64,000 bases of DNA from Octopus vulgaris (lineage: Eukaryota), in contig OX597833.1 of the NCBI GenBank assembly GCA_951406725.2, positions 45,198,001 through 45,262,000 of the forward strand, written 5' to 3'. A program made the position numbers and the translations under genes. Of this stretch, positions 241 to 24,685 are shown in pieces (position 1 is the stretch's first letter; every line of letters starts with the position of its first letter). The notes under the pieces were generated by a model. The model was not told the DNA's origin. It was given only the letters and a program-made list of their open reading frames with translations, and did not search any database.

Positions 241-334
241 TCATTAGGAGTGGTGGACTGTTCCTTTGAGTGTCCATCATCAGTGCTAAAGGTTCTTGTT
301 GCATGGCAGCTAACTATTCCTCCTGAAGATCGAC
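241..334 (-). CDS. Predicted exon 2 of an unidentified host gene (likely mitochondrial protein); gene continues left out of the window
   Basis: Acceptor cctgttttgtttcag| before 334 and donor |gtgagt after 241. With phase-1 entry from exon 24628-24685 it reads open: (G)RSSGGIVSCHATRTFSTDDGHSKEQSTTPN(D/E). Confidence 0.7.
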
Positions 335-360
335 CTGAAACAAAACAGGATGATGTTATA

Positions 361-581
361 TATATTTCTTTACTGCTCACAAGGAGCTAAACATAGAGGG
401 GACAAACAAGGACAGACAAAGGGATTAAGTCGATTACATCGACCCCAGTGCGAAACTGGTACTTTATTTATCGACCCTGAAAGGATGAAAGGCAAAGTCG
501 ACCTCAGAACGTAATAACAGACGAAGTACCGCTAAGCATTTTGCCCGGTGCGCTAACATTCCTGCCAGCTCGCCACCTTCA
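361..581 (-). mobile_element. tRNA-derived SINE (family B) with 19-bp TSD
   Basis: Head ggtggcgagctggcag and central tttgcctttcatcctttc.gggtcgataaa motif. TSD aaaacaggatgatgttata at 342-360 and 582-600. Confidence 0.85.
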
Positions 582-2099
582 AAAACAGGATGATGTTATA
601 CCTAACGTTTGGTGACACACAAACACACATCCATCATGTGTGTACAATGGTTGATGAATTGAGGATAGGTGACACAGGGTTTGAGAAGAATTCTTCAATT
701 TTGCCTAAGACAAGACAAACGCCCACTATAATGTTGGTGCCATAAAAATTGCACCCAGTATACTCTGTAAAGCAGTTCAGGTTTGAAAAATGGCATCCGT
801 CCATAGAAACCAAGCCAAAAATGTGACACAGGAGTAAAGCATAGTCCTTCAACCAGATGGATCCTGTTAAACAGTCCAACCCATGCCAGCGTGAGAAGCA
901 CACATAAAAAAAAAATGACGACGACAATAATGATGGGTGTAAGCTTTTGCACAATTTATGCCTACCAAATTTCACCTATGTAGGCATTGGTTAAACTGAC
1001 GCAGTGATAGAAGACACTGGCCCAAAATACTGCAGAATGGGATTGAACCAGGAACCATGTGGTTATATACAACGAACTTCTTAACTAATATAGCTATTCC
1101 TGCATAGCCTACTGAATAAGGTAAAAAAGTCAACTTTGTTAAGATTAAATAGTCACTTGGATCATCATCATTTAGTGTCCATTTTCCATGCTGGCATGGC
1201 TTAGGTGGTTTGACTGGATTGGTAAACCAGAAAGCAGTACCAGATTCCAGTCTGATTTGGCTTGGTTTCAACCACTGGATGCCCTTCCCAAAATCAACCA
1301 CTCCAAGAGTGTAGTGGGTGCCTTTTACGTGTCACCAAAACCAATAAACTACTGGTACTTGTCAAACTTTAGAAGAATGTAAAGTAGTGTTGATTCAGGC
1401 AGGATTTGAACTCAGATTCCAGGGGAAATAATGAAACTAAGTACTGTAAGGAATCTAGTTTGGTGTTCATTGCTATCTATTGGAATATATTCTTCAAATA
1501 AACACAACAAAAGCAAGAGGAAGTCTGACTTCATTTAATATCAAAGACGAAATACTCTGAGTTAGAGGGAATCTCTACATGGTTGTATGGGATAATGGAG
1601 TTGGGTAGGGGACAGGACTCTACATGGTTGCTCAGCCTGCTAGAAATAGCAACCAAATCACTATCTTAAAAAAAGGATATGTTGTATAGTCCTTGATGTC
1701 CCCCAAAGCCCCACCCTACAAACTTAAAAAGGCCACATAATGTAATGCTGTATGCCCTCTACAACTGACAAGATGGTCATCACTGGAATGCCTTTGATTA
1801 TAGGTCTGCTTGAACATGGCTGACCTGGTGTTAAAAACCAACAAAAAATCACTACTCGTGATGCTGTGATTAAAAGGTTGAGGCTGCTTCAAGTGAAATT
1901 CAGCAAGTTAACATTTTCAATGACTTCTAATATTTCAAAGATTTCTAATATTTAGTAACTCTTGACAAATTCTTTAACTTACAAACTTACTGCTTGTTTC
2001 TTGGTTGCAAAACAGAAAAAGAAAGAAAAAAAAAAAAGCTTATCTCATCAGAAAAAGAATAGTTACACATATGTGGTATTGGAATACCAGACCATTTCA

Positions 2100-2870
2100 G
2101 TTTTGGAGTTTAAATCAGAGATGCACTGACCAAATACAGAGAAGAATCAGTAAAGCTTGGCCTTCGGATAAGTTGGGTGAAGACCAAGCTGATGCATATC
2201 AGAGATGGTCCAGACTCTCCCTCTCTTCATACAGGCCCCAACGTCATGGAGTTTGTCAGCTCCTTCACCTACCTGGGCTCCACAATGGAAACCTGACCCT
2301 GGAGATCAACCATAGATGTGGTCTGGTACCTAGGATCATATACTCCCTATGGAAGCCCTTTGGTGCCACTTTAATCCTCTATCTCCTGGTAGATGAAGCT
2401 CCACATCTACAATGCATTAGCCCTCTCCATTCTCCTCTATGGAGCAGACACATGGCCCTACCCTCTTGGAGACCCTGGCAAAGAGGATCAATGTCTTGAT
2501 AGTAGAGCCCTGAGAACCATTAAGAACATCAGATGGTACCATCACATTTTCAATAAAGAACTGTGTGTGTGCATGCATCAGCCCACAGTCTCCCACCTCA
2601 TAGCTATCTGCCACATGTGCTAGTGTAGACATGACCTCCATCTCCCTCTGGATCATCCTACCAGAGCTTTATTCTCATTTGACACAGCAGCTGAGGCTGG
2701 AAGAGGCACACCAGATGCTGGATGTGATAGGGGAAAATCTTCAGAGGTTCAATGTCACCTTGGAGGATACAGAGGGGCTGGCATGGGACCACCAGCAGTG
2801 ATGGAGAGCACTGGTGGAGTTGGTTGGCTCTATGCATGATGACACCACCAAGCAAGAGCATGAGGTGAAA
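2100..2870 (+). mobile_element. Degenerate RTE-like LINE 3' fragment
   Basis: Frameshifted KLHIYNALALSILLYGADTW...RALRTIKNIRW motif typical of the RTE post-RT region. Boundaries approximate. Confidence 0.7.
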
Positions 2871-4015
2871 GAAGTTTAAATCCACTGCTGGCAGTTTCTT
2901 GTGTGTATGGAAAGTACACTTAATTCCCTGTTTGTTTCAGTTCGTGCATGTGTGTGGATGAGAGAGGGAGAGGTGGGTTCCTTTCAAACCAAGTATATAT
3001 GTGCCTGCTTTTATCTACAAAAGATAGGCTCTATGATCTTCTTTGACATACCTTGTAAGGGTTGAAATCAAAGAACAACAATGCCTTAGCAGCATTGTTG
3101 ATGACAACACAGAACAAAAGAAAAAGAACTAAACAAAAACAAAAAACTAACAAACGAGACTGAAGAAACTTGGTAAGATTTTACCAAAAACTTTAACCCT
3201 TAGGAAACAACAGGGCTGATCTATCGGCTGAATAGTCAAATGACAAAGAAGATTGTATTAGTTCATTCAATTTTCTGCAAGAATATATATAGTTTTATAT
3301 ATGTACAGTAATTACTTCATTTTTCATAATTGTTTTTGAAAAATAAGTGTGTGCCCTCTGTAGAACTTGTGAAAAGGGCTAAGTCTTCTTGGCACTGAAA
3401 CTCCAAATAAGGCTCCGTCTCCAAAGGGTTAATAACAAAAATAAAAAGATTTTTCCCATGGCAGTTATAATCCTTTTTACTATAGGCACAAAGCCTGTAA
3501 TTTGGGAGGAGGGGATTGAGCTAGTCCATTACATCATCCTGGTACTTATTTCAGTGACAACCCTGAAAGGATGAAAGGCAAAGTCAGCTTCGGCAGCATT
3601 TGAACTCAGAATGTAAAAATGGACAAAATGTCACTAAGCATTTCATTCAACTAAAAAAATTCTTCAAGGCAGTGCCCTAGCATGGCTGTAGTTTAATGAC
3701 TGAAACAAGTAAAAGATAAAAATAATATCAATAAAACTTTCTAATTTCGGCACAAGGCCAACAATTTTGAGAAGGGGCAGGGTAATTACATCAACCCCAA
3801 TACTCGACTGGTACCTATTTTATCAACCCTGATAGCATGAAAGGCAAACTTGGCCATGGTGGAATTTGAACTCAGAATGTAATAAACCAGAAGAACCACA
3901 AAACACCTTTTCCAATGATGTAACAACCCAGTCAGTCATTGCTTTTAGCTAGTATCAATAATAATATTACTTAATTAGCACCAATAATAATGTCAAAAAT
4001 TGAAGGAATACAATA

Positions 4016-4146
4016 TCTCTCTCTATATAAACGGCAGTTTGTCTGTGCGTGTTTCTGTGTGTCTGTTTGCTTGTACCCTTAGGGGACGCAACTCCACCTT
4101 TTTTTTACTCTCAAAAAAATTTACCATCATTTTTTTCCACTGCTAG
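4016..4146 (+). mobile_element. Very short non-autonomous Helitron
   Basis: 5' TC, 3' CTAG, inserted between A and T. Shares aaaaaaatttaccatcattttttcc with the copies at 20213 and 43805. Confidence 0.55.
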
Positions 4147-4329
4147 TCTTTTATCTTTCTCTTGTTTCAGTCATTAAACTGTGGCCATGCTGGTGCATCA
4201 CCTTGAAGAATTTTTAGTTGAATGTATTGCCTTTAGTACTAATTTCTTTTAAAGTACTTATTCTATCAGTTTCTTTTGCCAAACCACTAAGTTATGGGTA
4301 GTAAACATACCAGCACAGGTTGTCAATAC

Positions 4330-4740
4330 TATTGTATTGTAATAATACTTATAATATTTTTATATAAAACTTTCACTGTTCTTGGTTCTGTTTATGACTT
4401 GGGCTATCAGTCGAGTGTATAGGCATTGATGTAGTGGATATTTAAAATTTTGTCTTTGGTGAACCTAGCTGATGAGGACTAACCAGATTTAAGATAACAA
4501 ACATATTCTGGAAAGTCTGAAACTCAAGTACCACATTATCCATTTTTCTCGGGCGTTTCTCCTAGAGGTAGGATGAAAATTTTTTATATTCGTTGCCCGC
4601 ACACATCTTTGCCTCTGTACATTCAATGAAGCCTTACAATAGCATCGTGTGGTTATTCACTCCTATTTCCAGCAAACACTGATACCTTGTGTCACTATTT
4701 CCTATTTATAATTCAACCTTTACTGTGCTTATTACTGGAA
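4330..4740 (+). mobile_element. Penelope-like terminal repeat remnant with hammerhead-like core
   Basis: CTGATGA (4469-4475), stem II GGACT/AGTCT, then GAAAC (4519-4523). Boundaries approximate. Confidence 0.4.
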
Positions 4741-6798
4741 AACAATAAGATGGGCTTCTTTCAATTTCCATCAATCAAATCCACAACAAGGCTTTGGTTG
4801 ACCTGAGGCTACAGTAGAAGACATTTGCCCAAGGTGCCATGCAGTGGTACTGAACCTGGAACCATGTGGTTGGGAAGTAAGCTTCTTACCACATAGTCAC
4901 GCCTGCATCTATATATGTAAAATAAAATTGCAAAAATTGTAAATAAATAATTCCCAAGCCACAAGGAGATCTTGTAAGTGTTGCTGTTTGGCTCATGTTT
5001 CATGGTGTGAAGTAATTGAGAAATAAATCTCACCCCTAGATAGAATGTTAGTCTATTAACAGTAGTAAAATTTTTAGATGATCAAGTTTAAATTCCCAAG
5101 AACAGAGTGTTCTCTGAAATACGTGTATGTATATGCCTATAGAGGACCTGAACTCATGACCTATAAGCATGTAATACAATGCTTTATCCCCTTAGCTCTC
5201 TTGCCTCAACAACTAGATTCTAGACTTCAGTATCATCATGAAATGCAAGATTTAATTCTATACTAGAATTATATGTAACAGATTAATTTCACTAGATATA
5301 TCATTATCATCAACATCATAATGATGATAATATAGCCTAATCCTTCACTGCTACTGGCATCTTCATATTCTGTCAAGGTCAACTTTGCCTTTCATCCTTT
5401 TGGGGTCAATAAAATAAGTATCCCCTCTTCCAAGACTGCTGCCTTTGTGCCAAAATTTGAACCCATTATCATCATCATCATCATCATCGTTTAACGTCCG
5501 TTTTCCGCGCTAGCACGGGTTGGACGGTTTGACCGGGGTCTGGGGAGCCAGGGGCTGCCCCAGGCTCCAGTCTGATCTGGCAGTGTTTCTACAGCTGGAT
5601 GCCCTTCCTAACGCCAACCACTCCCCGAGTGTAGTGGGTGCTTTTTACGTGCCACCTGCACAGGTGCCAGAGGGGTCTGGCATCGGCCACGATCAGTTGG
5701 TGCGATTATTATTATTAAGATGGTGGGCTAGCAGAATCGTTAGCACAGCAGGTAAAATGCTTGCGGCATTTTGTCCATCTTTACATTCTGAGTTCAAATT
5801 TTGCCGAAGTTGACTTTGCCTTTTATCCTGAGCACTTGGGTCAATGTAATCGACTTAGCCTCTCACCCAAAATTGCTGGCCTTGTGCCAAAATTTGAAAC
5901 CATTATTAAATGAAGGAAAAAAAAATTATTGATATCATAACTGGACAAATACAGCATCTCTCCAATGACTTTTTTCCAGAGCCTCTAAGACTCATGGGAG
6001 GAAGGCATGCTGTATCCTCAGACTGGAGTCCTTGTCCAAATGCTTGAAATAGTGGACTCCATTTAAAGTACTCAAGGGTGTGGGTAGTAGCTGTAAACTA
6101 AGCAACAGCTTCTGAGGTAGATCAATGCTTCCCAAAGCAAGTAATAATGCTTTCAAGGTGTGTAACTGATGTTTTGCCCCAGGTCAGACCTGATCAATGG
6201 CTCCCAAAGTAGGAACTACTATCTTCAAGATGAGTAACTGCTGTTTACTCACAGGTTAACTTTGATTAAGAAGACCACTTCATTTTATTTTCAGACACTG
6301 GAATTAGCTAGACTACCCAGTGTATCCGTTTCTTTAAAGATAGTAAGATGAGTACAACACAAGAAGAATTTGGCTGCTATTTTTAGCAACTCTATGAACC
6401 ATATAATCCCCCTTGTTTGCTCAGTACCATATGACCCATTTCTGCACACAAGACCATAATAGTAGGGAGTACATATAAAGAGGTGTTCTAAGGGAGCAGT
6501 GACCGGACAAGTTTGGGGATCATTAGATAACCAAAATTAGAATTTAAAAATATTATTGGTGTTGTGATGTGTTACAATCAAGACAGGGTCAAATGTAGAT
6601 GTAGTGTAAATATCTCCTTAACCTTTTAGCATTTAATCTGGCCATATTTGACCCAATTATTCTACCCATTTTATGTTAAAACTGACTAGATATAATCTCT
6701 CAGACCTACCCTACAATGTCATTTTAAAAACATGCAAACACACTATTGAAATCCTGAAGCTATAAGATAATGCATGATTAATTCAATGCAAATAAATA

Positions 6799-6967
6799 AG
6801 CAGGAGTGGCTGTGTGGTAAGTAGCTTGCTAACCAGCCACATGGTTCCAGGTTCAGTCCCACTTCGTAGCATCTTGGGCAAGTGTCTTCTGCTATAGCCC
6901 CGGGCCGACCGATGCCTTGTGAGTGGATTTGGTAGACGGAAACTGAAAGAAGCCTGTCATATATATG

Positions 6968-7006
<39 letters not shown>

Positions 7007-7213
7007 ATGTGTTTGTCCCCCTAGCATTGCTTGACAACCGATGCTGGTGTGTTTACATCCCCGTCACTTAGCGGTTCGGCAAAAGAGACCGACAGAATAA
7101 GTACTGGGCTTACAAAGAATAAGTCCCGGGGTCGATTTGCTTGACTAAAGGCGGTGCTCCAGCATGGCTGCAGTCAAATGACTGAAACAAGTAAAAGAGT
7201 AAAGAGTAAAGAG
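6799..7213 (+). mobile_element. tRNA-derived SINE (family A), representative near-full copy
   Basis: Head gcaggagtggctgtgtggtaag..ggttcagtccc (A/B-box-like), internal TA/TG microsatellite, (aagagta)n tail. Other copies near 14887, 16285, 21210(-), 34040(-), 36207, 36781(-), 47755(-), 49320, 56509, 58230, 62715(-). Confidence 0.9.
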
Positions 7214-7214
7214 A

Positions 7215-7547
7215 ATGCATCTGACAAAGAAATCTGAATGCAGTTTGGTGTGGTCAGCTACCAGCCTAGGCTCCACTGCTCGTCAGGTTAAGAAAAGCAA
7301 GCTGTCTAAGAATCAGTCACTCTCCAACAGGTTTATGGTTGAGCCTGTGGCCATAGAGACTGCCAGTGTTTTTGGCCCGTGGACCATATTCCTGCTCACT
7401 GCTATTGGGGCAGAGATGGCTATCCATAAGCTTGGGTCCTGTGAGTCAGAGTGGCAGTTTCAGCGCATCTCCATCACCATCCTCCGGGGCAACACCTTTT
7501 CCATTTTGTCTGCTGGGGCCAGGGAGGTAACTTATGACAACATTTAA
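7215..7547 (+). mobile_element. 3' fragment of a restriction-endonuclease-type non-LTR element (CRE-like)
   Basis: ORF contains F..EPVAIET.SVFGP...FQRISITILRGN, resembling the C-terminal RLE region of CRE-clade elements. Confidence 0.6.
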
Positions 7548-9305
7548 ATGTTAAGTGGGAAGGGATTTGATGGGAGCATGTGCTTAGCCCCAGTTACAGG
7601 TGGATGAGAAGTCTTGTCTCCTTTTGAATAAGATATCAATTATAAGGAGTTAGGTAACATACTGTATTTATCTTTTATTTGTTTCAGCCATTAGGCTACC
7701 TCAAAGGGTTTGTAGTTGAACAAATCCTAACCATAACCCTAACCCCAGTACTTATTTAACCATTTAGTATTTGAACTGGCCATATCTGGCCTTGTTTTCA
7801 GTCGTGTTTGTTTGTTTGCTTGTTTGTCCATGGACAAGATATCTCAAGAACCGCTGAATGGATTCGGATGAAACTTTCAGAGATGTTTAACCGCATGACT
7901 GGCATGAACTGATTAGATTTTGGAATCAATCTGGTACCCAACAAGGATACTGGATTCATCATCATCATCATCATCATTTAGCGTCCGTTTTCCATGCTAG
8001 CATTGGTTGGACGGTTTAACTGGGGTCTGTGAAGCCGGAAGGCTTCATCAGGCCCAGTCAGATTTGGCAGTGTTTCTACGGCTGGATGCCCTTCCTAACG
8101 CCAACCACTCCGCGAGTGTAGTGGGTGTTTTTTACATGGATTGTTTTTCTATTTTTTTTTTTCTTAATTTTTGAGAGTGATCAGGTTCATTTTTAGTATT
8201 ATTGTTTGTGAGAGTAGCCGAGTTTATTTCAGATATTCTAAAAATATTTTTTAAATATTTAAAAATCATCTCTGGCTAATCATTGAGAAGACATTGATGT
8301 TGCCTTAGCAGAGGTTTGTGATCTCTGAGTGCTCTTGTTATTATTATTGCCGTTACATTCTGGGTTCAAATTCCGTTGAGGTCGACTTTGCCTTTCATCC
8401 TTTTGGGGTTGATAAATTAAGTATCAGTTACGCACTGGGGTCAATGTAATCGACTTAATCCGTTTGTCTGTCCCCTCTATGTTTAACCCCTTGTGGATAA
8501 TAAAGAAACATTATTATTATTATTACTCCCGCCTTAGTGAAGGCTGAGGTATTGTTTTCAGTTTATTTATATGTCTAAAAATAGTATCTACATAATTGGC
8601 ACTATCATATTTAATAAGCATCAACACTATATAGCCTTACCAAAATTTTGGAGAAGATGCACACAAATCTTGAGAAAAATCCTGGCTTTGAAAGGTTAAG
8701 GTGGCAAGTTGGCAAAATGCTTTGCTGTATTTCATCTGTCACTATGTTCAGAGTTCAAATTCTACTGAGGTCAACTTTACTTTTCATCCTTTCAGGGTCA
8801 ATTAAATAAGTACCAGTTACGCACTGGGGTTGATGTGATCGACTTAATCCCTTCCCCCAAATTTGAGGCCTTGTGATTCTAGTAGAAAAGATTATTATTA
8901 TTATTACCATTACTAATCGACTTACCCCACTCCCCAGAAATTGCTGGCATTGTGTCAAAATTTGAAACTTATTACCATCGTAGGTGGTAATAAAGTGACA
9001 GCACAATGAACTTTATGAAGAGTAGCTTTATTCTAGTAGATGAGGACTTAAAGTATGAGAGAAGAGGTCAAAGCAGAACAGGTTTCTTGCTGTGGAGGAG
9101 CAACAAGACAGCTCACATTTTCAAAGAGAGCGTGAATTTTTATACATAAAAAAAAACCCAACAAAAACAACCTAGGATTATTAAAGAGATTAAAATTTCA
9201 ACATAGGGTAAAATGGCTCATCACTGCAATAAGTTAACAGCTTTCTGAATCCACATCCATGTCCACAATCTAAGGAATTAATACATAGGAGTAGAAATTC
9301 ATATA

Positions 9306-9807
9306 CCGTAAATCCTCGAGTATAGTCCGCCCTTGAGTATAATACACAGGGGATTTTTAGGGGGCTCTACCTCTGTAAAACCTAAACCTTGTGTATAATA
9401 TGCAGCCCTTCTTTAACTTGAGTCAAGGAGGTCTATATAACGTTCTTGGTTTGTAAAAATGTATACGGTAACGTCCTTTATTATTATTATTGTATATATA
9501 ACATAATGCAAACGTGTAGCTTCTTTGCGCATTTTGTTTGCAGAAAATAAAGAAATAACAGTAATGACATTTAATAAATGTTGCTTACTGCAAGTTATGG
9601 ATGATTCTTTTATGACTTCATTGCTTTCAGGCTTAGCTTAAGATATTTTCACGCCTAACATCACAAAACGCGTCTGAATGAACATTGCCAGACTCGGACA
9701 TTGCTTAGAAAATATTTTTCATTTTTAACCCCGTATATAGTACGCACTAGGGATTTTGACCGTTAAATTTTGAGGAAAAAATGTAGATTATACTTGAGGA
9801 TTTACGG
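9306..9807. mobile_element. MITE, Tc1/mariner-pogo type
   Basis: TIRs ccgtaaatcctcgagtata / tatacttgaggatttacgg, flanked by TA. Confidence 0.8.
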
Positions 9808-10562
9808 TATATGTATATCATTGTCATCATCATTATTATTATTCTAATGTTCATTTTTTCATACTTGCATAGATTAAACAGAGTTTATTGAGGTAAATTT
9901 TTTACAGCCAAATGCCTTTCCTATCACCAACCCACACCTGTCTCGAAGCAAAGAAATATTTCCCCAGAGCCAGACATGTCTTTTGTAGAATATTAGAAAT
10001 GACTGACATTGTTTGCATGACAGTGGTTCTCATTTACAAATATCACATGAAGTCAAAATAAGGTGACACAAACACACATGCATACATGTACATACATAAT
10101 GAGCATCTTTCAGTTTCAACCTACCAAATCTGACAAAGCTTTGGTTGGCCTGTGGTTATAATTGACGACACTTGCCCAAGGTACCATGCAGTTGGATTGA
10201 ACCTGAATCTATGTGATTGAGAAGCAAGCTTCTTAACCCCACGGCTGAGGATTCCTTTCATTGTAACTCAGTTTCGTGTAGATTGTGTATGAATTTCTTT
10301 TCAAGAGGTTTTCACAGAACTATGAGTGACAACTAATGGCAACCTCAACATCAAATAAAAACAAACTCTACTTCATTTATTCAATAGGTTCTTTTTTTAT
10401 TTTCTTTCATAAATTTAAATGTATGCATATATATGTATGTATATATATATACACACACACACATACACACAAATACATGTTTGTGTGGTAATTACCAATG
10501 AATGTTTTGGCTATAAATGGCTGGAGATCAGGATGATAAGAGAAAATGTTTTAAAAGGAATT

Positions 10563-10568
10563 TTTATT
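10563..10568 (-). terminator. Candidate AATAAA polyadenylation signal for GLMN
   Basis: AATAAA ~85 nt after the stop codon; further copies at 10376-10381 and ~10396-10401. Confidence 0.4.
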
Positions 10569-10653
10569 TTTCAGTACTTTGAAGCAATTGGACAATTGCA
10601 GACTATTTTCTGTTGAGGTAATGTCAATTTCTTCATTTTGACAATCTACCTTG

Positions 10654-12579
10654 TCAACTGTTTGATTTAACAGCGGAAGCCTGTGGTTGCTGATCAAGGA
10701 GCTCATTAATACGACACAACACACAACCCATCATGTCAAATGTATTCAAAGCATTGTTAAATACTTGTACCAGTTGGTCAGGCGGAAGATTGGGCAACAC
10801 CTGATTGCCAACATTGACTGTCATATCTGGTTTATTCTCCTCGAGGGCATTCTTCTTTACTTCTTCTCCATGATGGACGTTTTTCAGCTCTAGTTTATAG
10901 TGAGCCCTAGACATGTCTAAAGCCACTTGAAGAGGGGAAAGAAACTGAGTCCTTAATTTATTCTCTAAACTCCAAAACCCAGAAATATTTTTAGAACGAG
11001 GATCTCTCAATATAAGATAACGCACAAAGTTCATGGAAGAAAGAATTCGATCGGAATGTTGGAGAATATCTGTGGTTTCTGCATCTGGCAATTGGATAAT
11101 AGCTCGAAGCAGTTTTAATAAATTTTCACCAAGGAAAGTGTGATCCTCTACTGGATATTTCTGTAAGCAGAAGTCTACCTCATCTTTGATTAACTGAATA
11201 CAGTAACCAAGAACCCCAGGGTTCTCACAACATGCTAACAAAGATTTATATGCTTGATAACGACCTGCTGGTTCAAACATCCGTATAACATCTGTGAAGA
11301 TGTTGACGGCGAGTTTGCGGAAAGTTTGGAGGGAACAATGTAACATAATCTTAGTCAAACTAGTTAAGAGTTGTAGATAACAATCATTTTCAAAAAACAC
11401 CGGCCGCAGTGTATAAGGTTCAATTTTTTGCAAACAACTATTGGCCAAATGCAAACCCTTATACAAAATGAGAGATTGGGAAGAATCAAGTAGTCTAAGA
11501 ATAAATGGTATGTTGTATTCAAATATGTATCTTGGAGAATATACACAGCGTATACTGTCAATACTTAGATTTTCTGAGAAAACTAAATACAATAAACAGC
11601 TTATGGACAATTCTGGTATTGGAGCTTTTGTCTCTTCTTCATCGTCTTCTTTTGTATTTTTATCCTCGGTCAAACCTTTCTCAAGTTCCTCAGTGCTCAT
11701 ATTATCATCATGTTCTGTTTTGTCTCCATCCTCCTCCTCTTCATCAGCATTTTTGATTTTTTTTTTATCTAATTTTAGGCTGCTGTTATAGAAGAGAGCA
11801 TCCTCAGCAATCTGGAGAAAATCTTGATGAAGACAAGCCAGTTGGGAAAAAAGCCTTTCAGCACATAAGTGGCTTTCTGACTTTGCAGATTTATCATTGA
11901 GCGGAGAAGCTAGATGGAGAAAGAGAAGAGGTTTATTTAATAATGCCAACAGATACCAATTGAGAAGATCTGCCTGGAGTGGTTGGTAAGCATGCTGGTT
12001 ATTTCTGTTCTTTAAGGAGACTGCTTCAACAAATGGCTTCATAAAATCAAGAGTTGCAAGAACAATGTCAGTAAGCCTTTTGACAACAGGATCGTTCTCA
12101 AACAGCTTTTGTTCCTCTTCTCCTTCTAATGCATTATTATCAGGGAGTTCCACCGAACAGATATAACGATAAATTGCTTGCAAACTATTTTCTAAGGAGG
12201 ACACACAAGGTTTTGGAAATTTTAACAGGCAGTCACAAATGGGTCCAAGAACAGATTTGAACTGTGTATCATCAACAAGATCTCCCCAGTTTTCTAAGAT
12301 TGCAAGTAATAAGACACGAGGTTTGCCTTTCTTAATAAGATGAGCAAGACAATATTCACAAGTTTTGAAGAAACTAGGATTCTGTTCAAGGTTTTCCTGT
12401 GTCAGACAATGTACAATGTCACTTGTTAAATCAAAGAATATAGTCTGTTCTGAAAGATCTTGTTCTAAAACATAGTTAGCGAGTCCCTTGGAATCACGAA
12501 AAGAGAGGCATTCTTTAATTTGGTCATATAATAAAGTAGGGTCATCGGTTTTGGCAGGAGTTTCAAGTGGGCCCTCCAT
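10654..12579 (-). CDS. GLMN: Glomulin (FAP68/ALF4 family, RBX1-binding cullin-RING ligase inhibitor), 641 aa, intronless CDS
   Basis: Uninterrupted 1926-nt ORF; ATG at 12579 in aggATGg context. Motifs SISCLLYLVF..NLSIDSIRCVYSPRYIF, LPDAETTDILQHSDRILSSMNFVRYLILRD, FLSPLQVALDMSRAHY and LPPDQLVQVFNNALNTFDMM match GLMN as I recall it. Confidence 0.92.
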   Translation of the reverse strand: MEGPLETPAKTDDPTLLYDQIKECLSFRDSKGLANYVLEQDLSEQTIFFDLTSDIVHCLTQENLEQNPSFFKTCEYCLAHLIKKGKPRVLLLAILENWGDLVDDTQFKSVLGPICDCLLKFPKPCVSSLENSLQAIYRYICSVELPDNNALEGEEEQKLFENDPVVKRLTDIVLATLDFMKPFVEAVSLKNRNNQHAYQPLQADLLNWYLLALLNKPLLFLHLASPLNDKSAKSESHLCAERLFSQLACLHQDFLQIAEDALFYNSSLKLDKKKIKNADEEEEDGDKTEHDDNMSTEELEKGLTEDKNTKEDDEEETKAPIPELSISCLLYLVFSENLSIDSIRCVYSPRYIFEYNIPFILRLLDSSQSLILYKGLHLANSCLQKIEPYTLRPVFFENDCYLQLLTSLTKIMLHCSLQTFRKLAVNIFTDVIRMFEPAGRYQAYKSLLACCENPGVLGYCIQLIKDEVDFCLQKYPVEDHTFLGENLLKLLRAIIQLPDAETTDILQHSDRILSSMNFVRYLILRDPRSKNISGFWSLENKLRTQFLSPLQVALDMSRAHYKLELKNVHHGEEVKKNALEENKPDMTVNVGNQVLPNLPPDQLVQVFNNALNTFDMMGCVLCRINELLDQQPQASAVKSNS

Positions 12580-12651
12580 CCTCAGCAACCAAAGAATTAC
12601 AGAAAATGCAATTCACAATGATGACATCAACTGGGCGGCTTTAGTGAATAT

Positions 12652-12670
12652 CTGAAAAGCAAAAGGAAAG
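12652..12670 (-). promoter_or_regulatory. 3' splice acceptor of the GLMN exon
   Basis: ctttccttttgcttttcag|ATATTC, a strong polypyrimidine tract 72 nt upstream of the GLMN ATG. Confidence 0.75.
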
Positions 12671-13454: not shown

Positions 13455-14047
13455 GGATCTTTTCCTTTTCTAGTTAACTAAACACTTTAAAACTTCGTAT
13501 ACTGGTAGAATGTGTCAAAATAAAACATTTTTTTCTCTTGGCTTTCTTGAGAAAATTGTAATTTGTTTGTTTAATGTAGTTTAATTTTTTGAATTTTAAC
13601 CAATCCTCTGCTCTCTTTTGAGCTAAAATCATTTGCTGCGTCTAAAACTGAGACGTATACAGAAAGCGTGTGTATAAAATTATAGAATTATTTTGTTTGT
13701 TAATTGTTTAAATTATTTTCCATTGCTTTCGGCTTTTTTAACACGTGTAACAATTAAATTAATTTAACAATTAAGAAAAAAAAAGTTAGTTAGGTTCAGG
13801 GTTAGTGACAGGATGTTGTCTCAGTTTTAGACGCAGCAAATGATTTTAGTTCAATGGAGGTAATCGATTGGTTAAAATTGCCAAAATGCTTGGATTTTCA
13901 GACGAAATATCTTACAAACTATAGAATTTTCTCAATAAAACCAAGAGAAAATGATGTTTTAAACACATTCTACCAGTATACAAAGTTTAAAACTTTTTAG
14001 TTACCTAGAAATTATGTTACAAACTGCCGTTCAAAAGGAAAAGATCC
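13455..14047. mobile_element. Merlin-like MITE
   Basis: TIR ggatcttttcctttt / aaaaggaaaagatcc; 8-bp TSD catatatc on both sides. Confidence 0.8.
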
Positions 14048-14597
14048 CATATATCTGTACATACAAATGGATGTCTCATCACATATTAACTACACTTGAA
14101 ATATAATCTGGGAACATGGATTCTAAGAAAATAATCTACAGAAAAGTTTTAACAGATACAGGCTCCTCTAGAGAGTCTGAAGCACTTTATATATAGATAT
14201 ATAAAGTGGCAACGACTTATATTCAATAACCAGTTACATGTTAGCAACCACGCCACCAAAAAAAAAAAAAAAAAATTGTGCCTCTAAGAATAATATTTGA
14301 ATAAAGATGACGAGTGTGAGCTAAGTGTATTGAGTGACAGAGCAGAGTCATTAATTCAAACCTTCCACTAGCCACTGTATGGAGACCTTAAGCAAGACAC
14401 TTAACTCTGCTTGTCTGTTTATCTAAAAAATGTTTCAGTTTTGCAAAAAAAGGCACCCTGTTATTAAAAACATGGCTCTATTAAAAACCTGTATTTTGAC
14501 TTTTTTTTTTTGTGGAAGAATCATATTATCCACATAAGCACACATACAGATCTACCATTATATTTCGTTGTTTTATTTCTTTATAAAAATCAAAATA

Positions 14598-15903
14598 TGA
14601 GGTGGTATCAAAAAGTTCCAGGACTAGTTATGTTTAATAAAAAAATGACTTATTTACCTAAGTTTTAACATTATCTTTGAAACAGACACCTTGCACACCA
14701 ATACACCGGTCTCAGTGTTCTTGCCACTTTTGGAATCTGGCCTGGAAGTAATTTTCCAACCACTTTTGGAATCATGGCATGGAAGCGAGTTGAGGACCTT
14801 CTGCAATTCGCTCTGGATCTCGACAAGTTTTAACACGGTGACTTTTGAGCGGCCTTATCATTTCGGGGGAAGAAATGGAAGTCCACAGTGGCTGTGTGGT
14901 AAGTAGCTTTCTTACCAACCACATAGTTCCGGGTTCAGTCCCACTGCATGGCACCTTGGGCAAGTGTCTTCTACTATAGCCTCGGGCCGACCAAAGCCTT
15001 GTGAGTGGATTTGGTAGACGGAAACTGAAAGAAGCCTGTCGTATATATGTATGTGTGTGTGTGTTTGTGTTTGTCCCCCCAACATCGCTTGATAACCGAT
15101 GCTGGTGTGTTTACATCCCCGTAACTTAGCGGTTCGGCAAAAAGAGACCGATAGAATAAGTACTAGGCTTACAAAGAATAAGTCCTGGGGTCGATGTGCT
15201 CGACTAAAGGCGGTGCTCCAGCATGGCCGCAGTCAAATGACTGAAACAAGTAAAAGAAAAAAAAAAGTTGCTAAATCTTTTGAATAGGGTGAGTGCAGAA
15301 GCTATACCATGTTGCTTTTGGTGAGAAACTCACAAATAAGGAAAGCTCAGAGACAAGTTACAATGTCAGCATGAAGAATCCAATTCTTTTGCTCCACATA
15401 TCCAGTCACTTTCACTGAATGTTTTCCCTCAAACGCTCCAAGACGTTGCAGTAGAACTCTCAATTAATGGTTTGGCCCTGGGGGATGAATTCTTGATGCA
15501 GAATACCACATTTTCCAGGAGTGGCACTCATGGCACGTCTTCCAGGGATGTTCGTCTGCTTTTGAAGCAGCCATGCCACTCGAAACATTGCATACAAACC
15601 ATTGCCTCATTGCAGTAAGCTTGCCAAAGCATGCTCAATGTCTCTGTAGCAGACTTCCCAAGTTTAACGCAAAATTTCATGTTGGGTCTTTGATCCAATT
15701 TCCTGTCCATGACAAAATTGCAGATAAACAGCATACATGTGATCACAAAGCGCAAAGTTCACAACTTGCAAAGTAAACACAGCGATGTCACTTGGCATAC
15801 TGCCTCATGAAAGTCACTACTAGCTCTCACTGTGCACACAACCGTATGCTGCCATCTGTTAGCATGCTACAGAACTAGTCTGAGAACTTTTGATACTACT
15901 TTG
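14598..15903 (-). mobile_element. Deleted mariner element interrupted by a SINE
   Basis: TIR gaggtggtatcaaaaagttc..gactag; transposase N-terminus QRPNMKFCVKLGKSATETLSML at 15528-15755. Confidence 0.75.
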
Positions 15904-17186
15904 TATATATACTCTATATAATAAGCTGCTGGCACTCTGCTGGTTATGACAAGGGCTCCAGTTGTTTTGATCAACAGAACAGCCTGCTCATGAAATTAAC
16001 ATGCAGTTGGCTGAGCACTTCACAGACACATGTACCCGTAACGTAGTTCTTAGGGAGATTCAGTGACAGAGTCTGTGGCAAGGCTGGCCTTTTGAATTAC
16101 AGGTACAATTCATTCTGGCCAGCTGAGTGGACTGGGGCAACATGAAATAAAGTTTCTTGCTCAAGGACACAATGCACCCCTGGGAATTGAATTCATGACG
16201 GTCGTGAGCCGAATACCCTAACCACTAAGCAACATGCCTATATATAATACTATGAAGATATATATATATCTATATATACTAGATAGGCACAGGAGTGGCT
16301 GTGTAGTATGTAGCTTGCTTACCAACCACATGGTTGCGTGGGAAGTGTCTTCTACTATAGCCTCGGGCTGACCAAAGCCTTGTGAGTGGATTTGGTAGAC
16401 GGAAATGAAAGAAGCCCTGTTGATTCGTTAGCTACTGCACGCATTTTTTTTCTCTCCTTCTTTCTGTGTTTTTCTCTCTCTGTGTATCTTTCTGTTGAAG
16501 AGCGTAGGCTCGAAACGTTAAAGACTTGTTTTATTTATATTTCCTGAGCGCCATACTAATACAATTGTTCGTTTGTTTTCCACCTGCCTTCGTCTTTTGT
16601 TTATTTTCATAAAGCTTCCCGGTATGTATATATATATATATATATGTATGTATGTGTGTGTGTGTATATGTTTGTGTGTCTGTGTTTGTCCCCCCCCCCC
16701 CAATATCGCTTGACAACCAATGGTGGTGTGTTTACATCCTCGTAACTTAGTGGTTTGGCAAAAGAGACTTATAGAATAAGTATTAGGCTTCCAAAGAATA
16801 AGTCCTGGGGTCGATTTGCTCGACTAAAGGCGGTGCTCCAGCATGGCCACAGTCAAATGACTGAAACAAGTAAAAGAGAGTGTCAAAGGTAGAGTATTTC
16901 TACAACTGATCACCAGCACTTGAGAGTGATAAAGTGATAGATCATCATCATCATTTTAACATCTGCTTCTCCACATTTGTATGGGTTGGATGGAGTCTAC
17001 TGAGGAAGATTTTCTATAGCCAGATGCTCTTCCTGTCATCAATCCTCAGGTATTTTCAAGCAAGGTAAAATTTCCTCATGGTGAGACAGGTTTATGCAGA
17101 AAGTTGGAAATGAGTGACATGGTCTATATGACAATGACACTAATAAGTCTTGCATAATGTCAAGATGTTATGCAAGAAACAAATAT

Positions 17187-17225
<39 letters not shown>

Positions 17226-17230
<5 letters not shown>

Positions 17231-17407
17231 GTAAATGTAATATGTGACAATTATTTGGTAGCCATGATAAAACTCCGAGTTTCGGATGCTGAGGTGGAAA
17301 CCCATGCTGCCATCTCTTCATGGCAGTGTGGATTTCCACCTCAGCATCCGAAACTCAGAATTTTATCATGGCTACCGAATAATTGTCACATATTACATTT
17401 ACAGATA
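17226..17407. repeat. ~180-bp near-perfect palindrome (foldback) next to a (TA)n tract
   Basis: Arm tatctgtaaatgtaatatgtgacaatta...ggatgctgaggtggaaa and its reverse complement, separated by a short loop. Confidence 0.9.
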
Positions 17408-19594
17408 AATTCCTCTGTTTACATAATCGAGGTCTCTTTCATTCTTTTGTTGTCTTACCACTTTTATCAATATATATATGTGTGTGTATGTGAATTTTAG
17501 GTTAGAGAATATATGTCTGATATTACTTGTAAAGGCAAATTCACTGTAGTTACTATGGAGAAAAAATTTTATGGTAAAAAGGTATTCACACACACATAAT
17601 GGGCTTCTTTCAGTTTCCACCTACCAAATCCATTTACAAGTCTTTGGTTGGCCAGGAGCTATAGTAAAAGACACTTGCCCAAGGTTCCACACAGGGAGAC
17701 TGGACCAATAAATTTTTTTGACACTTAATGGTATTATATATCACAAAGTGTGAAAAGGAACAAAAGTGATTGTACGATACAATTGTTTTAAATTGATATG
17801 ACTTCTTCCATGACGTGTGTCATTTGCAACACACAGTACCAGATTGAATAAAACCCCAAGATTTTAAAAACTATTTTCTGTTTTATTCATTAAACTATTC
17901 GCATTTAAACAGGACATATCCTGCTCAAATATTCTACCTGTTTTATACTAAACTGGGCCAGATTCTGCTTCTCACACCTACTCTACAATGTTGTTCTGAA
18001 AATAAGCAATCATATCATCAAAATCTTGAAGCTATGAAATAATGCAGAATAATGTGAATGCTGAAGTGTTAATGTCTAAGTCTGTGATGCTTGGGAATCC
18101 AGCAGGAGAGTTGAATGATGACTGCTTCTGATAGGAATCTACAGAGGAAGTGCTTGAGGATTCTACCCCTATGACCCTCCCAGGAATATAGGGGCTGTGA
18201 AAATGGATTGGAGAGGTGGTGAACAAGTGACCAAGACATCTGGTGATATGCTATGCTGAGAAGACCTGTGAAGCCAAGTGAAATCGTAGTTGTGACCAAT
18301 GCCAGAAGCACCCTTTGGACATTGGGCTTCATGGAGGCAATGATAAGTGACAGACCTTTGGTGATATGCTGTGCTTGAGAAGACCTGTCAAGCCGAGTGA
18401 AATCATAGTTGTGACTGATGCTGGTGTCATGTAACTGACAACCGTGCCAGTGGCATGTAAAAAGCACCCACTACACTCTTGGAGTGGTTGGCGTTAGGAA
18501 GGTCATCCAGCCATAGAAACCATGCTAAATCAGATTGGAATTGATGTAGCCCTCCAGCTTACCAGTTTCAAACTGTCTAAGCCATGCCAACATGGAAAGC
18601 AGGCACTAAATGATGATGATGAAATGTTGCACTATAGTAAAACTTCCCCTTGGTTTTCAAGGGGGTAAGTAACTGAGAAATTTCTTCCCTTGAATAGAAC
18701 ATTAGTCCACTGTAAATTTTACCAAAGAAATACTTGATCTCAGCACTACAAACCAATGAAATCTAAAACATCTGAAAACAGAGTACGATTGGCTGGGACC
18801 ATGAACAGCATCTATGTATGGTACTGATTAGATAAATTCAGCCTTTTAGGAGGTAAGGGTCATTGCCAATAGCTCAGTTTGCTGGAGTTTAATTCTACAT
18901 TCTACACTACCGCTCCTACATTAACATTTACTTCATTACATAATTAACAAAATTTGTCCTTAAATTGGCAATATTAGCAGAATTATATATTACAATATGA
19001 ATAATGGATCCAACATGATTTTTTCCAATTCACATCTAATTAAAAAACATTTACTCACTTGAACATTTAATAAGCTGAGGATTAAAAGACAGAAATTTCA
19101 ACACATAACTAGCTAATACAATTTTACTGTGATGAAACTGCACTACATAGGCGCATATAACATGAAATATGAGTCCATGAAGGAAGTTCCACTTATTTAG
19201 AACCAATTTTTCCATTAAATAAATCACTGCCACATCGACCCATCAAAACAGACACCTCATGTGATAATATAAAATAGTGTAAGTTAAATTGTTTACTTAA
19301 AGTAGTAAATGTTTCTAATTCCTGAAAGGATGTTTGCAAGAATCTGCACTTAGATTCTGATATCAAGGTGTTAGCTAACAGGACAAGATAAATCTCTGGT
19401 TACAGTGGTAGTAAATTGCAAGGGACATTTTCAAATGAACATTGCTTTTACTGTAAGCTAAGTAAACTAAGATACACAGAGAATTAATTATACTACCCAA
19501 TTAATTGTACTACCCAAATACACTATGAAAGGATCAGAACAATAATTTTAATTACAAATAGCTGGATGCTCAGCAGTAGAATGTACATCTACAA

Positions 19595-19932
19595 CAGTGG
19601 TTCTCAACTGGGGTTCATATAAGATTTTTGGAGGGCCAAACAAAATAGTAAATTAGGGATACTCAATAGTTTTTTGAGGGCTCCTGAAAAAATTTTGCTT
19701 TGCATGTATGTTTTGGTATATATTGCTAAAAACAGCTAAGTTTCTTTCTTTCACATTTTACATAGTTTAACCTACACAAGTTAAAGTGTGAAAAACAAAA
19801 AAATACGAATTTTGAAAGAAGTATCTATAAAACTGGTTTTAAACATTGAATGGCTACAGGGGGGGGGGTTTCCACCAGAACAAAACAATAACCAAAGCGA
19901 TCCATAGATAAAAAATTGTTGAGAAACCCCTG
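19595..19932. mobile_element. hAT non-autonomous element
   Basis: TIR cagtggttctcaac / gttgagaaacccctg; TSD atctacaa / atctagaa. Same family as 38196-38952. Confidence 0.75.
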
Positions 19933-20212
19933 ATCTAGAATGTGTAAGTAGCTACCCAGACAGAATCAGAAGGGTGTTAGACAAAATGCTTTGTGGCATT
20001 CAGTTACATCATTTTACACGCCGCCAAGTCCAATGTGTTGCTTTTCCTCATGGGGAAAGGGGGGGGTTGGTGATAAATTAAGTTTAGTAGCAAACAAATA
20101 TTGGGATGTTTTAATTGGCTATGCTCTCACTCAAAATGTGTGGCCTTGTCTATGACAGAAATCAGTATTTGAACACACTTCAGATATGCCTTCAATACAA
20201 CAAATAATTATA

Positions 20213-20518
20213 TCTTAATATATAAAATTGAAGTTGTGTGTGTTAGACTCTGTCTCCTCCGATTTAGATTCCTAACTACTCCCACATTTTGCGGTGCAGT
20301 TTAACCAAAAGCGGGTATCTTATAGTCGTGATTCATATCGAGCCCTTCTGGGTATTAGCGCATGTCTACGATGAGTCTACGATTTAAAAAAAAATTTACC
20401 ATCATTTTTCCACATTTTTAATGCATTTTTGCTCGGTTTATATAAGGGAAGTAACTCTCTAAAAATGCTTATAGTTATTTCCCTTACAAACCCGAGCAAC
20501 GCCAGGCGATACTGCTAG
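20213..20518 (+). mobile_element. Non-autonomous Helitron
   Basis: 5' TC, subterminal hairpin cccgagcaacgccagg, 3' CTAG, A|T target site. Confidence 0.8.
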
Positions 20519-23500
20519 TCTGATGTAAACTTGTGCAGCATTGCCAACACATACAGTCCAAATACTTCATCAACAAACAAGTAATTATATTTTAACTAGT
20601 ATTACCTGTTGTATGATGAGTAATGCTAGCAATATGTTTTTGTTACTGTAGTAATATCAAGTAAAGTTACACAATATGTTTGTATATATATATATATATA
20701 TATATATAAAATCAATAACATTAATACTGTTTAACTATCAATTATAAATGCAACATTAATTCTATATAAGGTAGTATGAAATCTTTTAGGGTGACCAAGC
20801 AATCAACAATGAACATTATCAGTACTGTTGATGATTGCGTGTGTGTGTGTGCAAGTGCTACTGTTTTGTTTCGGAGCAAGAAGTAACTTTTTGGGGGGTT
20901 CTATGCTTGATGCCTTCATCTTACTTACGTTTTCAATATCATTCTCTTAACTTATAAATTTGTGGCTTTCATGTTTTCACTCAAAAATAATTGAAGCAGG
21001 ACAGTTCCAAAAAGGATATTCCATTATAATTAATTCTGAGATCTAATACTAGTATTAACTTTGCTTTTTATTCTTTCAAGATCAATCAAAAGTTTCCTTT
21101 CCAAAATTCTACTCATGCCTAGTCAAAAGAAAAGTTACCAAACAATATTTATTCTCTATATCTCTTGAGTATCCATTTAATCTCATGAACTACTATATGC
21201 TTTTCATGACTCTTTTACTTGCTTCAGTCATTTGACTGTGGCCATGCTGGAGCACCACCTTTAGTCGAGCAAATCAACCCCAGGACTTATTCTTTGTAAG
21301 CCTAGTACTTATTCTATCGGTGTCGTCTGCCGAACCGCTAAGTTACGGGGACGCAAACACACCAGCATTGGTTGTCAAGCGATGTTGGCAGGTACAAACA
21401 GACATACATATATATTATACATATATACGACAGGCTTCTTTCAGTTTCCGTCTACCAAATCCACTCACAAGGCTTTAGTTGGCCCGAGACTATGGTAGAA
21501 GACACTTGCCCAAGGTGCCATGCAGTGGGACTGAACCTGGAACCATGTGGTTCATAAGTAAGCTACTTACCACACAGCCACTCCTACATGATACAATTTT
21601 AAATGATTTCTCCTAAACACATTTACTTTCTAGACAGTAATTAAAGAGGCTAGCTATTTGACAAAGCCTCATTCATCAAAATACTTCACAACCATAAGTC
21701 CATACTAAGTTTGGATTTCCTTCTTTTCTTTCTTCATTGCTATTAAAATGGTCACTACTGACGTGAAATCAGCATGCCAACAGTATGCCACTCTGACCTA
21801 AACCCTACTTGGGAAAATAAAGTTTAAAAAAGCAAGAAAAAAGAGGAATGGTTGGGGTTCAAATTCAACTGATTTTTCTGCCAACCTAATTTTTTTTATC
21901 CCGTTTTCTATGAGTGAAGTGAAAAGAGGCTTTTCTAGGTAACAAGTCTGATTCACTAATGCAAACTTTTTTGATATGCTAGTCTCTTGCATTTCGTCCA
22001 TTGAACTCTCAAAATACATTGATCAATCCATTTTTTTCTCCCCTATAAATGTATCCATCAAAACTGCCAACATGAATTTCAAAATAAACGAAACTGGTAG
22101 CACATTTTATTTCGAGAGAGGACTGAAAATGTCCTTTATAATTTCATTTTCTCTCCACGGAGTATCCATGATTAGCAGATCCTGAATGAGCTTTATTCCT
22201 TCTCCAAAACCAAGAGAAATCAAAATCTGATTATAAAGGCCTTGGTCTTGAAATAACAGTAAACCCGTTCATTTGCTATAAATCTAGCCCTCCCCTATTG
22301 ACAATAGACACAATTAAGTAATCTCACTCACTACGCGATCCTTCAATATAACAGTCCACTTTCACTTTGTCAAACTACATCTAATAGAGGGATGGGGCAA
22401 AATTAGTAACCGGTGTAAAATGAGTGATTTCTGATTTCTCATTATTTTCTCTCTACCCGTTTGAAATCATTACATTGCAAGTACTGTACCATCATTTTGA
22501 ATTGCTACATTATATTTACGAGAAAAAAATTGGTCTGCATAGTTGTTGAATTTGCGAGTCCGAAACAGAGTCAGGTGACAAGTACATTTTTTTTTTTCAA
22601 GAAATTTTCCCTTGACTTTGACCCGACTGTAATTGAGGTTGCTAATAAAATAACTGGAGAATTTTTGGTGTTTTTATGAATCAATTTTCCCTTCTGTTGG
22701 ATTCCAAGTCAATTTCTTCCTATACTAATTTGATAATTTTCAAATTTCAAAAATAAACTTCCTCTCTTTAACAGAATGGTAAGTAAAATATATCATGTAG
22801 AGAGACACTCCAGCAGGTCGTGAAGAAGCTACATAGAATATTTTATGTCGAGCTTTTTTTTTTCAACCGAGTTTCGTTAATTTCGGATCATGTGCCATTT
22901 TCCCATGATCCTCTTTCATTTGATTTACATATTTTTAAATCTTTTATTTTTGTATTTCTTATGTCTGAGGATGGATATTGATGTGTATGAGTTGTTTTCA
23001 AAAGTAATTCTGGAGAACTGAAGTGGCAAATTTACCTTATCTTTGCTTACTCATTTTGCCCCAGTCAAATTTGCCTTTTATATGCTCAAAGAGAAAGGCG
23101 ATAATTTTCTGAAATAGTGTTCAAATTATGTTACGTTTCTAATGCATTTAGGGAAGGTCATTTGCTTAGATGTTATAGTTTTTACAAGGTAGTGAAAAAT
23201 ATATTTTGTCTCAAAGTAAAAAATGCAGTAAAAATTCCTTATTCTGACCTCCACTATAATCTTGAATGCTCGCCAAAGATTTTTTCTTAAACGTTGTACT
23301 GTGGTCAGAACCCCTTTTCATAGGCTTGAATCCCCCCCCCTTTGTTGTGTTGCTATATAGACATTCCTACAAATGTGTGCATCTCCCACCACCACGACTT
23401 TGGTGCCTCATAACTTCCAAAAAAAAAAACGGATATTTTTTTTTAAATGAAATTCTCTACAAATAATGTAGATTCCAATTATATCGGAATATGTGGTGGG

Positions 23501-24627
23501 ATTGAGTTTCGGAAAATTCACCTGCGTCGGTTTTGTTTACCCATAGCTTTCAGAAAAATGAGTGATTTTTTTTTATTGAAATTTTCTATAAATACCTTTC
23601 AGAGCGTGTAGATTAAAAAAACTTGGTGGGGTCACACACATACATACTGACACACATCGCATTTGAAATTTGGAAAAAATAAAAATTGTCATGTGTATCA
23701 GTATGTGCTCAGTATTTTTCTTTTCACATCAAATTCCGACATAATTGTAATCTACACACTCTGAAAGGTATTTGTAGAAAATTTCATTAAAAATATAATC
23801 ATTTTTCTGAAAGTTATGAGGAAACAAAGAGATAAAACAGAACCACACAAAATCCAAAACCTCTAAATGTAATTTTTTCGCCAATGATAAACGAAATAGT
23901 ACTAGCTGAAGCGCCGCCAAAATGAAAGTTATTTGATATATTTATATAAGGATTGCCTTCGAATGTATAAAATTAACGCGAAACATACCAAAATAATTCG
24001 TAGATACTAGATTTATCTAAAAAAAAAAAAAAAAAATAGCCGGCATTCTGTCAACAACATATTTTAGGACGGCGAACTTTCAGAAATAGTTACATTATCT
24101 TAAGGAGAGAAAAAAGGGAAAGGAATTAATTGAGTGGCTGTTTCCTTCCGTGAAATACTTTTTTCTTGTCCAAAAAATTAGATTTATTTATTTTTTTTAC
24201 ATTTTTGTCCCTAATTTCCATCACTTTTCCTATCTCGTGGGACAGGTGCAATAGTAAAAAAAATTTACCGATTATATAACTTCGTAATGATATGGCTTGA
24301 TTATTTTCTTTGCAACTACGCCAATTATAAAAATAAAATGGAAATAAAACATATCAACGAGTTGAATTATATATATATATATATATATATGTATATCTAT
24401 ACAAGTAGGAATATATAAGCTGTGTGTTCGTGAGTGAATTTATATTTTGTATGCAATATCACGAGATGAAAGGCACATTATAATGTCTATAAGGATGCAC
24501 GGACCTTGAAGGTCTACTTTAATATTTTATGTTTTGAATCGAGGTTAAACAGTAAACATTATCGAATTTACTTTTATACACATAATTCAAACAAAAATTC
24601 ACTATAAATAAAACATGTTCAACTTAC

Positions 24628-24685
24628 CTAAAGTAACTCTCAAACAAAATCCAGTTCGGAGAAAACGTGCTAACATCACTGCCAT
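24628..24685 (-). CDS. Predicted first coding exon of the host gene (MAVMLARFLRTGFCLRVTL)
   Basis: acaATGg Kozak context at 24685, perfect donor AG|GTAAGT at 24627, Arg-rich peptide with no acidic residues, CpG-retaining unique sequence around it. Confidence 0.7.

Follow-up and report, generated by a model that had tools for sequence, protein, structure and literature searches.

The COQ9–GLMN locus

We here describe a 64,000-nt stretch of the Octopus vulgaris genome (assembly GCA_951406725.2, contig OX597833.1, positions 45,198,001 to 45,262,000 of the forward strand), hereafter called the window and numbered from its first letter, in which an intronless gene for glomulin (GLMN) lies whole, and on the same strand, within intron 1 of the coenzyme Q biosynthesis gene COQ9. 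An original prediction, made from the letters alone, had placed an intronless GLMN gene within an intron of a gene for a mitochondrial protein and had proposed that the two share a first exon. All of its coordinates and frame arithmetic could be reproduced, the host was identified as COQ9 on the minus strand, and GLMN was found to be a single open reading frame (ORF) with a family score over the cut-off, as given below. COQ9 exon 1 is likely to be used by the GLMN transcript too.

The host gene COQ9 and its first intron

Searching with one exon led to a cluster of Octopus COQ9 proteins, and further exons were sought in an additional 200 kb past the window start. As found with tblastn, the cluster protein P0022 (XP_029647538.1, CAI9737752.1) is the Octopus COQ9 spread over nine exons, with 100% identity exon by exon, alignment overhangs aside. 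The N-terminus of P0022 starts with exon 1 and continues with exon 2, so that the in-frame join 24628>334, previously proposed from the letters, is in fact an annotated one. The parts of the host gene are as follows.

241..334, minus strand: COQ9 exon 2, located by tblastn of P0022; in frame with exon 1; donor GA/GTGAGT
335..24627, minus strand: COQ9 intron 1, 24,293 nt, containing GLMN; located by the exon mapping of P0022
24628..24685, minus strand: COQ9 coding exon 1, the first 19 codons of the predicted presequence; 58 nt, phase 1; 100% match to P0022 residues 1–20
C20:45194037 down to 45172879, minus strand: seven further COQ9 coding exons past the window start; located by tblastn of P0022 and splice sites

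Exon 1 is single-copy in the genome, and has a start codon with A at −3 and G at +4 together with a donor of the form AG/GTAAGT. P0022, identical to the local exons, scored 32.6 bits for COQ9_N (PF21392) and 108.1 bits for COQ9 (PF08511), both over their cut-offs, with the PF08511 domain encoded at C20:45180662–45180802. The first 37 residues of COQ9 include five basic and no acidic ones, with a hydrophobic moment of up to 0.66 in residues 1–15, giving an amphipathic start. This composition is as for a mitochondrial presequence, which intron 1 would then split after codon 19.

The nested GLMN gene

The guest gene and its candidate polyadenylation signals are found well within the intron.

10654..12579, minus strand: intronless GLMN, 641 aa, single ORF; matches to PF08568 and 4F52_E
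10376..10568, minus strand: candidate GLMN poly(A) signals, AATAAA hexamers at 10568, 10401 and 10381, of putative use

The encoded protein scored 76 bits against PF08568 (cut-off 25), covering positions 62–630 of the 636 in the profile, and matched human glomulin (4F52_E) with an E-value of 7e-54, the strong match extending over residues 310–634. It differs from the Octopus sinensis protein XP_029647537.1 at only 3 of 641 residues. The GLMN start codon (12579) has A at −3 and G at +4, annotated as well as assembled GLMN proteins begin at their own Met, and the first AATAAA follows 86 nt past the GLMN stop. Among the 13 candidates scored in the genome there was one match, making this the only copy found, and none of the 13 represented an intron-containing parent gene; an origin by retroposition, with later loss of the parent, is possible. 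The human GLMN is a multi-exon gene on a chromosome other than that of COQ9. Human glomulin is described as inhibiting cullin-RING ligases by masking RBX1 (PMC9105235), and the octopus GLMN belongs to the same family, with RBX1 binding being known for the human protein.

A candidate acceptor ahead of GLMN and a predicted upstream ORF

Ahead of the GLMN start codon we found a candidate splice acceptor, followed by two short upstream ORFs (uORFs).

12652..12675, minus strand: candidate 3′ splice site of the GLMN exon, with a branch-like TGAT, a pyrimidine tract (14 of 15 pyrimidines) and CAG; putative use
12641..12651, minus strand: tail of a predicted 22-codon uORF, three codons and TAA; needs splicing of exon 1 to 12651
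12613..12627, minus strand: four-codon uORF with a weak start context (start 12627), 13 nt past the first stop

The acceptor at 12651 precedes the GLMN ATG by 72 nt, and no AG in the 300 nt upstream of that ATG is better. By pyrimidine count it is one of three among the 1452 AGs of the intron and the sole CAG of those, and it ranks 23rd of the 1452 by a small matrix trained on the eight COQ9 acceptors only. When exon 1 is joined to 12651 the frame closes after 22 codons, with the TAA at 12643–12641, and the GLMN ATG follows 61 nt after that stop. The exon would thus not be read in frame into both proteins, as this join reaches its stop after three codons.

Junction-dependent decay is unexpected for an mRNA consisting of exon 1 and the GLMN exon, because its sole junction precedes the uORF stop. 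It has been reported that in mammals reinitiation can follow uORFs shorter than about 30 codons (PMC5972666), a range into which the 22 codons predicted here fall. Searching for the peptide of the predicted uORF gave no candidate among proteins of 22–70 residues, in a collection that may not carry peptides so short.

Other uses of the upstream sequence were considered and rejected. A mitochondria-targeted GLMN made by an in-frame join was discarded because the frame runs into a stop from each of the three in-frame AGs that precede the ATG, and in-frame joins at AGs inside the GLMN ORF (such as 12449) because another AG lies 9 nt upstream and the N-terminus would be deleted. Co-translational targeting of the GLMN mRNA by the uORF peptide was set aside since 22 residues, by general knowledge, remain within the ribosome tunnel. 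An ATF4-like switch does not agree with a second uORF that is weak, four codons long, only 13 nt past the first stop and without overlap with GLMN.

CpG pattern along the unit

With repeats masked by self-comparison of 264 kb only, the ratio of observed to expected CpG was highest in the following region.

23701..25000, no strand assigned: CpG-retaining region round exon 1, likely promoter of the unit; ratio 1.17 in non-repeat bases

The ratio was 0.83 upstream of this region and 0.25–0.41 across the rest of the unit, with 0.13 in the kb ahead of the acceptor at 12651 and 0.33 in the remaining upper intron. For Nautilus, promoters and first exons are reported as unmethylated and gene bodies as methylated (PMC12532940). 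Given that methylation pattern, the GLMN 5′ flank resembles a gene body because it is CpG-depleted, and GLMN is probably without a promoter of its own, to judge from base composition.

Nesting of GLMN in COQ9 in insects

Chimeric models in which GLMN is followed by COQ9 were found four times among the best 150 of 3266 COQ9 relatives (P0069, P0083, P0061 and P0063), with Pfam run on 17 proteins. They derive from the moths Epargyreus and Anticarsia, the tsetse fly Glossina and the beetle Molorchus, and two of them are RefSeq models. In addition, an Atlas cluster of 96 members, mostly arthropod and possibly the query's own, had PF08511 in 95% and PF08568 in 85%. Such models show adjacency only, because mere neighbours merge too and the joins vary by species. 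GLMN–COQ9 chimeras are widespread in arthropod annotations and probably arise as artefacts when gene predictors meet genes nested on one strand.

A scan of JGI contigs gave 17 COQ9 loci, four of them intronless (mRNA-like) and 13 genomic, of which nine stop short of exon 2. In all four genomic contigs that extend that far, an intronless GLMN (589–596 aa) lies directly ahead of COQ9 exon 2. These four contigs count as two independent loci because three (L028, L029 and L030) are more than 99.5% identical, and both loci are insect-like by best matches. Exon 1 of the three near-identical contigs is 52 nt long and of phase 1, as established from the related mRNA-like contig L025, in which COQ9 exon 1 runs straight into exon 2 without GLMN. 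In L029, where that exon spans 7197–7248, the distance to the GLMN ATG is 538 nt, and 255 nt separate the GLMN stop from exon 2. The second locus, L036, has a candidate phase-1 exon 1 of 58 nt (1735–1792) and an acceptor at 2161, 95 nt before the GLMN ATG; 12 of its 384 AGs pass the acceptor filter, two of these within 100 nt of the GLMN ATG. The predicted uORF of L036, having 30 codons, ends 60 nt before the GLMN ATG, compared with the 61 nt in octopus, and the anatomy of the two mirrors each other. AATAAA is also found 3′ of the GLMN stop in both L029 and L036. As for cephalopods, 278 pattern matches to GLMN loci in the JGI contigs gave no confirmed case.

A possible extra non-coding exon was also seen in L029, at 7568–7678 between COQ9 exon 1 and GLMN, with an AAG acceptor and an AAG/GTAAAC donor.

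With regards to Drosophila, we take CG30496 to be the fly GLMN. One P insertion is recorded as an allele of both CG30493 and CG30496 (PMC4978919) and thus lies where these two genes overlap, with CG30493 being given as COQ9 (PMC5455201). That GLMN occupies the equivalent phase-1 intron of COQ9 in both a mollusc and insects suggests one event before the protostome split, on the basis of those two groups; by these sequence comparisons the nesting is old and held in common by octopus and insects. It is therefore not a cephalopod oddity, a point that the original prediction had missed.

Annotated octopus models and the 3′ flank of GLMN

In the O. sinensis RefSeq annotation XP_029647537.1 is named 'glomulin isoform X1' and the consecutive accession XP_029647538.1 'COQ9 isoform X2', and neither a GLMN X2 nor a COQ9 X1 of this species is present in the two clusters (three members each). 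RefSeq X numbers are assigned per gene. The split of X1 and X2 across consecutive accessions, together with the missing partners, thus indicates that GLMN and COQ9 were probably merged into one gene. GLMN and COQ9 have near-adjacent accessions also in Octopus bimaculoides, where the contigs that carry them are equal in length. The COQ9 of the window is present in the protein collection and its exact GLMN is absent from it.

One stretch in the 3′ flank of GLMN bears upon the O. bimaculoides models.

10125..10209, minus strand: repeat-derived stretch ending in a phase-1 donor TTG/GTAGGT; best diagnostic match: O. bimaculoides COQ9 isoform X1, first exon

Its reading frame is stopped in the window, and its orthology was judged from residues in common, among many repeat copies. 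The stretch may serve as an exit by which read-through RNAs leave the GLMN 3′ flank for COQ9 exon 2. As a start here, the first exon of isoform X2 of the O. bimaculoides COQ9 was rejected, the matching stretch (9303–9247) having neither an ATG nor a GT donor. The O. bimaculoides starts located 3′ of GLMN may reflect either read-through or an exon 1 missed by annotation.

Proposed expression of the two genes and alternative explanations

We consider it probable that one promoter yields two mRNAs at this locus, composed of either exon 1 and the GLMN exon or exon 1 and COQ9 exons 2–9. GLMN would be made as an alternative last exon, by a 24628>12651 splice and an end at the AATAAA sites after GLMN, and COQ9 would be made by skipping GLMN through the 24628>334 splice. 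On the GLMN transcript the 19 presequence codons would close as the 22-codon uORF, and reinitiation or leaky scanning would let ribosomes start at the GLMN ATG, yielding a protein with no mitochondrial tag. The presequence uORF would be an automatic consequence of GLMN borrowing a coding exon, and probably is an unavoidable by-product that holds GLMN low. The split between the two mRNAs is probably constitutive. The original prediction had instead seen the choice of splice site and polyadenylation as a regulated switch, which gained no support, a fixed split of the output of one housekeeping promoter fitting equally well. A single insertion of an intronless GLMN into COQ9 intron 1, before molluscs and arthropods parted, is the likely origin of the layout, which would have been retained because this GLMN is the sole copy and probably lacks its own promoter. 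A more far-reaching proposal would be that COQ9 and GLMN have been transcribed as a single unit ever since the ancestor of the protostomes, that use has preserved this layout, and that the acceptor and polyadenylation choice together with the presequence uORF couple the GLMN level to coenzyme Q synthesis and stress-dependent reinitiation; this we regard as distinctly unlikely.

Several observations weigh against the two-mRNA reading. By chance, a site as good as 12651 would lie no more than 150 nt from a given point with a probability of about 0.13, as estimated with a matrix having only eight training sites. In L029 no AG between the donor and the GLMN ATG passes the acceptor filter, which the real exon 2 acceptor fails too, and exon 1 of L036 was chosen by eye, has an off-consensus donor, is unlisted in the donor scan and has a homology E-value of 0.22. 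As for the chimeric models, 2 of the 17 proteins fuse COQ9 to other neighbours, namely an RNA polymerase subunit (P0051) and a SWIRM/JAB protein (P0121). A non-repeat patch of the intron (14552–14851, minus strand) has a CpG ratio of 0.70 and donor-like sites at 14690 and 14658, and is possibly a private first GLMN exon or an unrecognised repeat. Finally, CG30493 and CG30496 are unnamed in the shared-exon and polycistronic lists of FlyBase 2015, as contained in 11 of the 12 supplement files (PMC4528330), and the fly may thus use a separate promoter. The fly lists (though one P insertion hits both genes), the lack of a strong acceptor in L029 and the mildly CpG-rich patch would all agree with a GLMN that is nested yet independent, having its own promoter or a private non-coding first exon in the intron, with 12651 either unused or joined to that private exon and with no presequence uORF. 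We find such independence rather unlikely, considering the CpG depletion ahead of GLMN and along the intron, the X1/X2 pattern of O. sinensis RefSeq and the acceptors seen before the GLMN ATG in octopus and L036 alike.

The O. bimaculoides annotation also weighs against the two-mRNA reading. Its COQ9 models begin in the GLMN 3′ flank (matches to 10209–10125 and 9303–9247), none of those in the cluster starts at exon 1, and GLMN there is unlabelled for isoform; the RefSeq merge could hence stem from read-through into COQ9 exon 2 and not from exon 1. Together with the two moth RefSeq models and the chimeric 96-member Atlas cluster, these starts would favour a unit giving mainly read-through RNAs, with an internal GLMN exon joined onward to COQ9 exon 2, resulting in two-cistron RNAs or, in arthropods, a true fusion protein. 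The chimeric joins, however, vary by species, falling after about residue 198, near the C-terminus or with COQ9 exons skipped, as would be expected of predictors unable to nest same-strand genes. Moreover, each of the four mRNA-like COQ9 contigs lacks GLMN and encodes an N-terminus of its own, no donor within the final 250 nt of the window's GLMN ORF passes the consensus filter, an AATAAA follows shortly after the GLMN stop, and a fusion would bury the COQ9 presequence. We therefore hold this explanation to be very unlikely.

Comparison with known compound loci

In the cholinergic locus VAChT lies in intron 1 of ChAT, and exon sharing has been described in ticks using reverse transcription-PCR (PMC7524744). 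COQ9/GLMN is similar in having a guest ORF whole in one exon within host intron 1, on the same strand and with a layout kept across animal phyla, and would also be alike in sharing exon 1, as predicted for COQ9/GLMN. ChAT and VAChT act in a common pathway, whereas no link is known between COQ9 and GLMN. COQ9 exon 1 also differs in carrying the host start codon and presequence, which would act as a uORF for the guest.

The Su(var)3-9/eIF2gamma compound gene is dated to about 400 million years and occurs in insects only (PMC1435931), and for several of the coding-sequence (CDS) overlap pairs File S2 of the FlyBase study notes no conservation beyond insects or Drosophila (PMC4528330). COQ9/GLMN resembles these in comprising unrelated conserved genes, present as single copies, with one inserted in an intron of the other and with one, here putative, promoter. 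It is unlike them in that their N-terminal residues are common and in frame, whereas the COQ9/GLMN join would end after its three codons and GLMN uses its own ATG. In contrast to Su(var)3-9/eIF2gamma, the nesting of COQ9/GLMN is found in cephalopods as well as insects. The FlyBase shared-exon genes without common coding sequence comprise 162 models, 130 of which share promoter and 5′ non-coding exons (PMC4528330). With those COQ9/GLMN would have in common that one promoter and first exon serve two proteins without common residues, but their shared exons are mostly non-coding for both genes, whereas COQ9 exon 1 codes for the host. The kind of locus is thus already known, from ChAT/VAChT and the FlyBase shared exons, while this pair is apparently unpublished and unusually old. 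No paper naming both COQ9 and glomulin was found, although subscription papers and supplements may do so, and among the papers listed on a glomulin ortholog in Drosophila, going by titles and abstract openings, and on nested or shared-exon genes there was none on the COQ9/GLMN locus.

Other features of the window

Outside the COQ9–GLMN unit the window contains the following elements.

59929..60546, minus strand: Mariner/Mos1-type transposase remnant (PF17906)
58813..59094 and 62333..62644, plus strand: two open frames resembling exons of an opposite-strand gene; no Pfam match; reminiscent of CCDC66
35459..36159: purine-skewed repetitive block with long minus-strand open frames; looks satellite-like

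Implications

Annotation pipelines merge GLMN and COQ9 into false fusions or may drop GLMN. Mutations or insertions at the 5′ end of COQ9, or RNA interference directed against it, may in these animals strike GLMN too, as with the P insertion in the fly. If exon 1 is spliced as proposed, the locus would offer a natural example in which an exon for a mitochondrial presequence also serves as a uORF. Being very old and combining two housekeeping genes with no relation to each other, this compound locus could serve protostome phylogeny as a rare genomic character.

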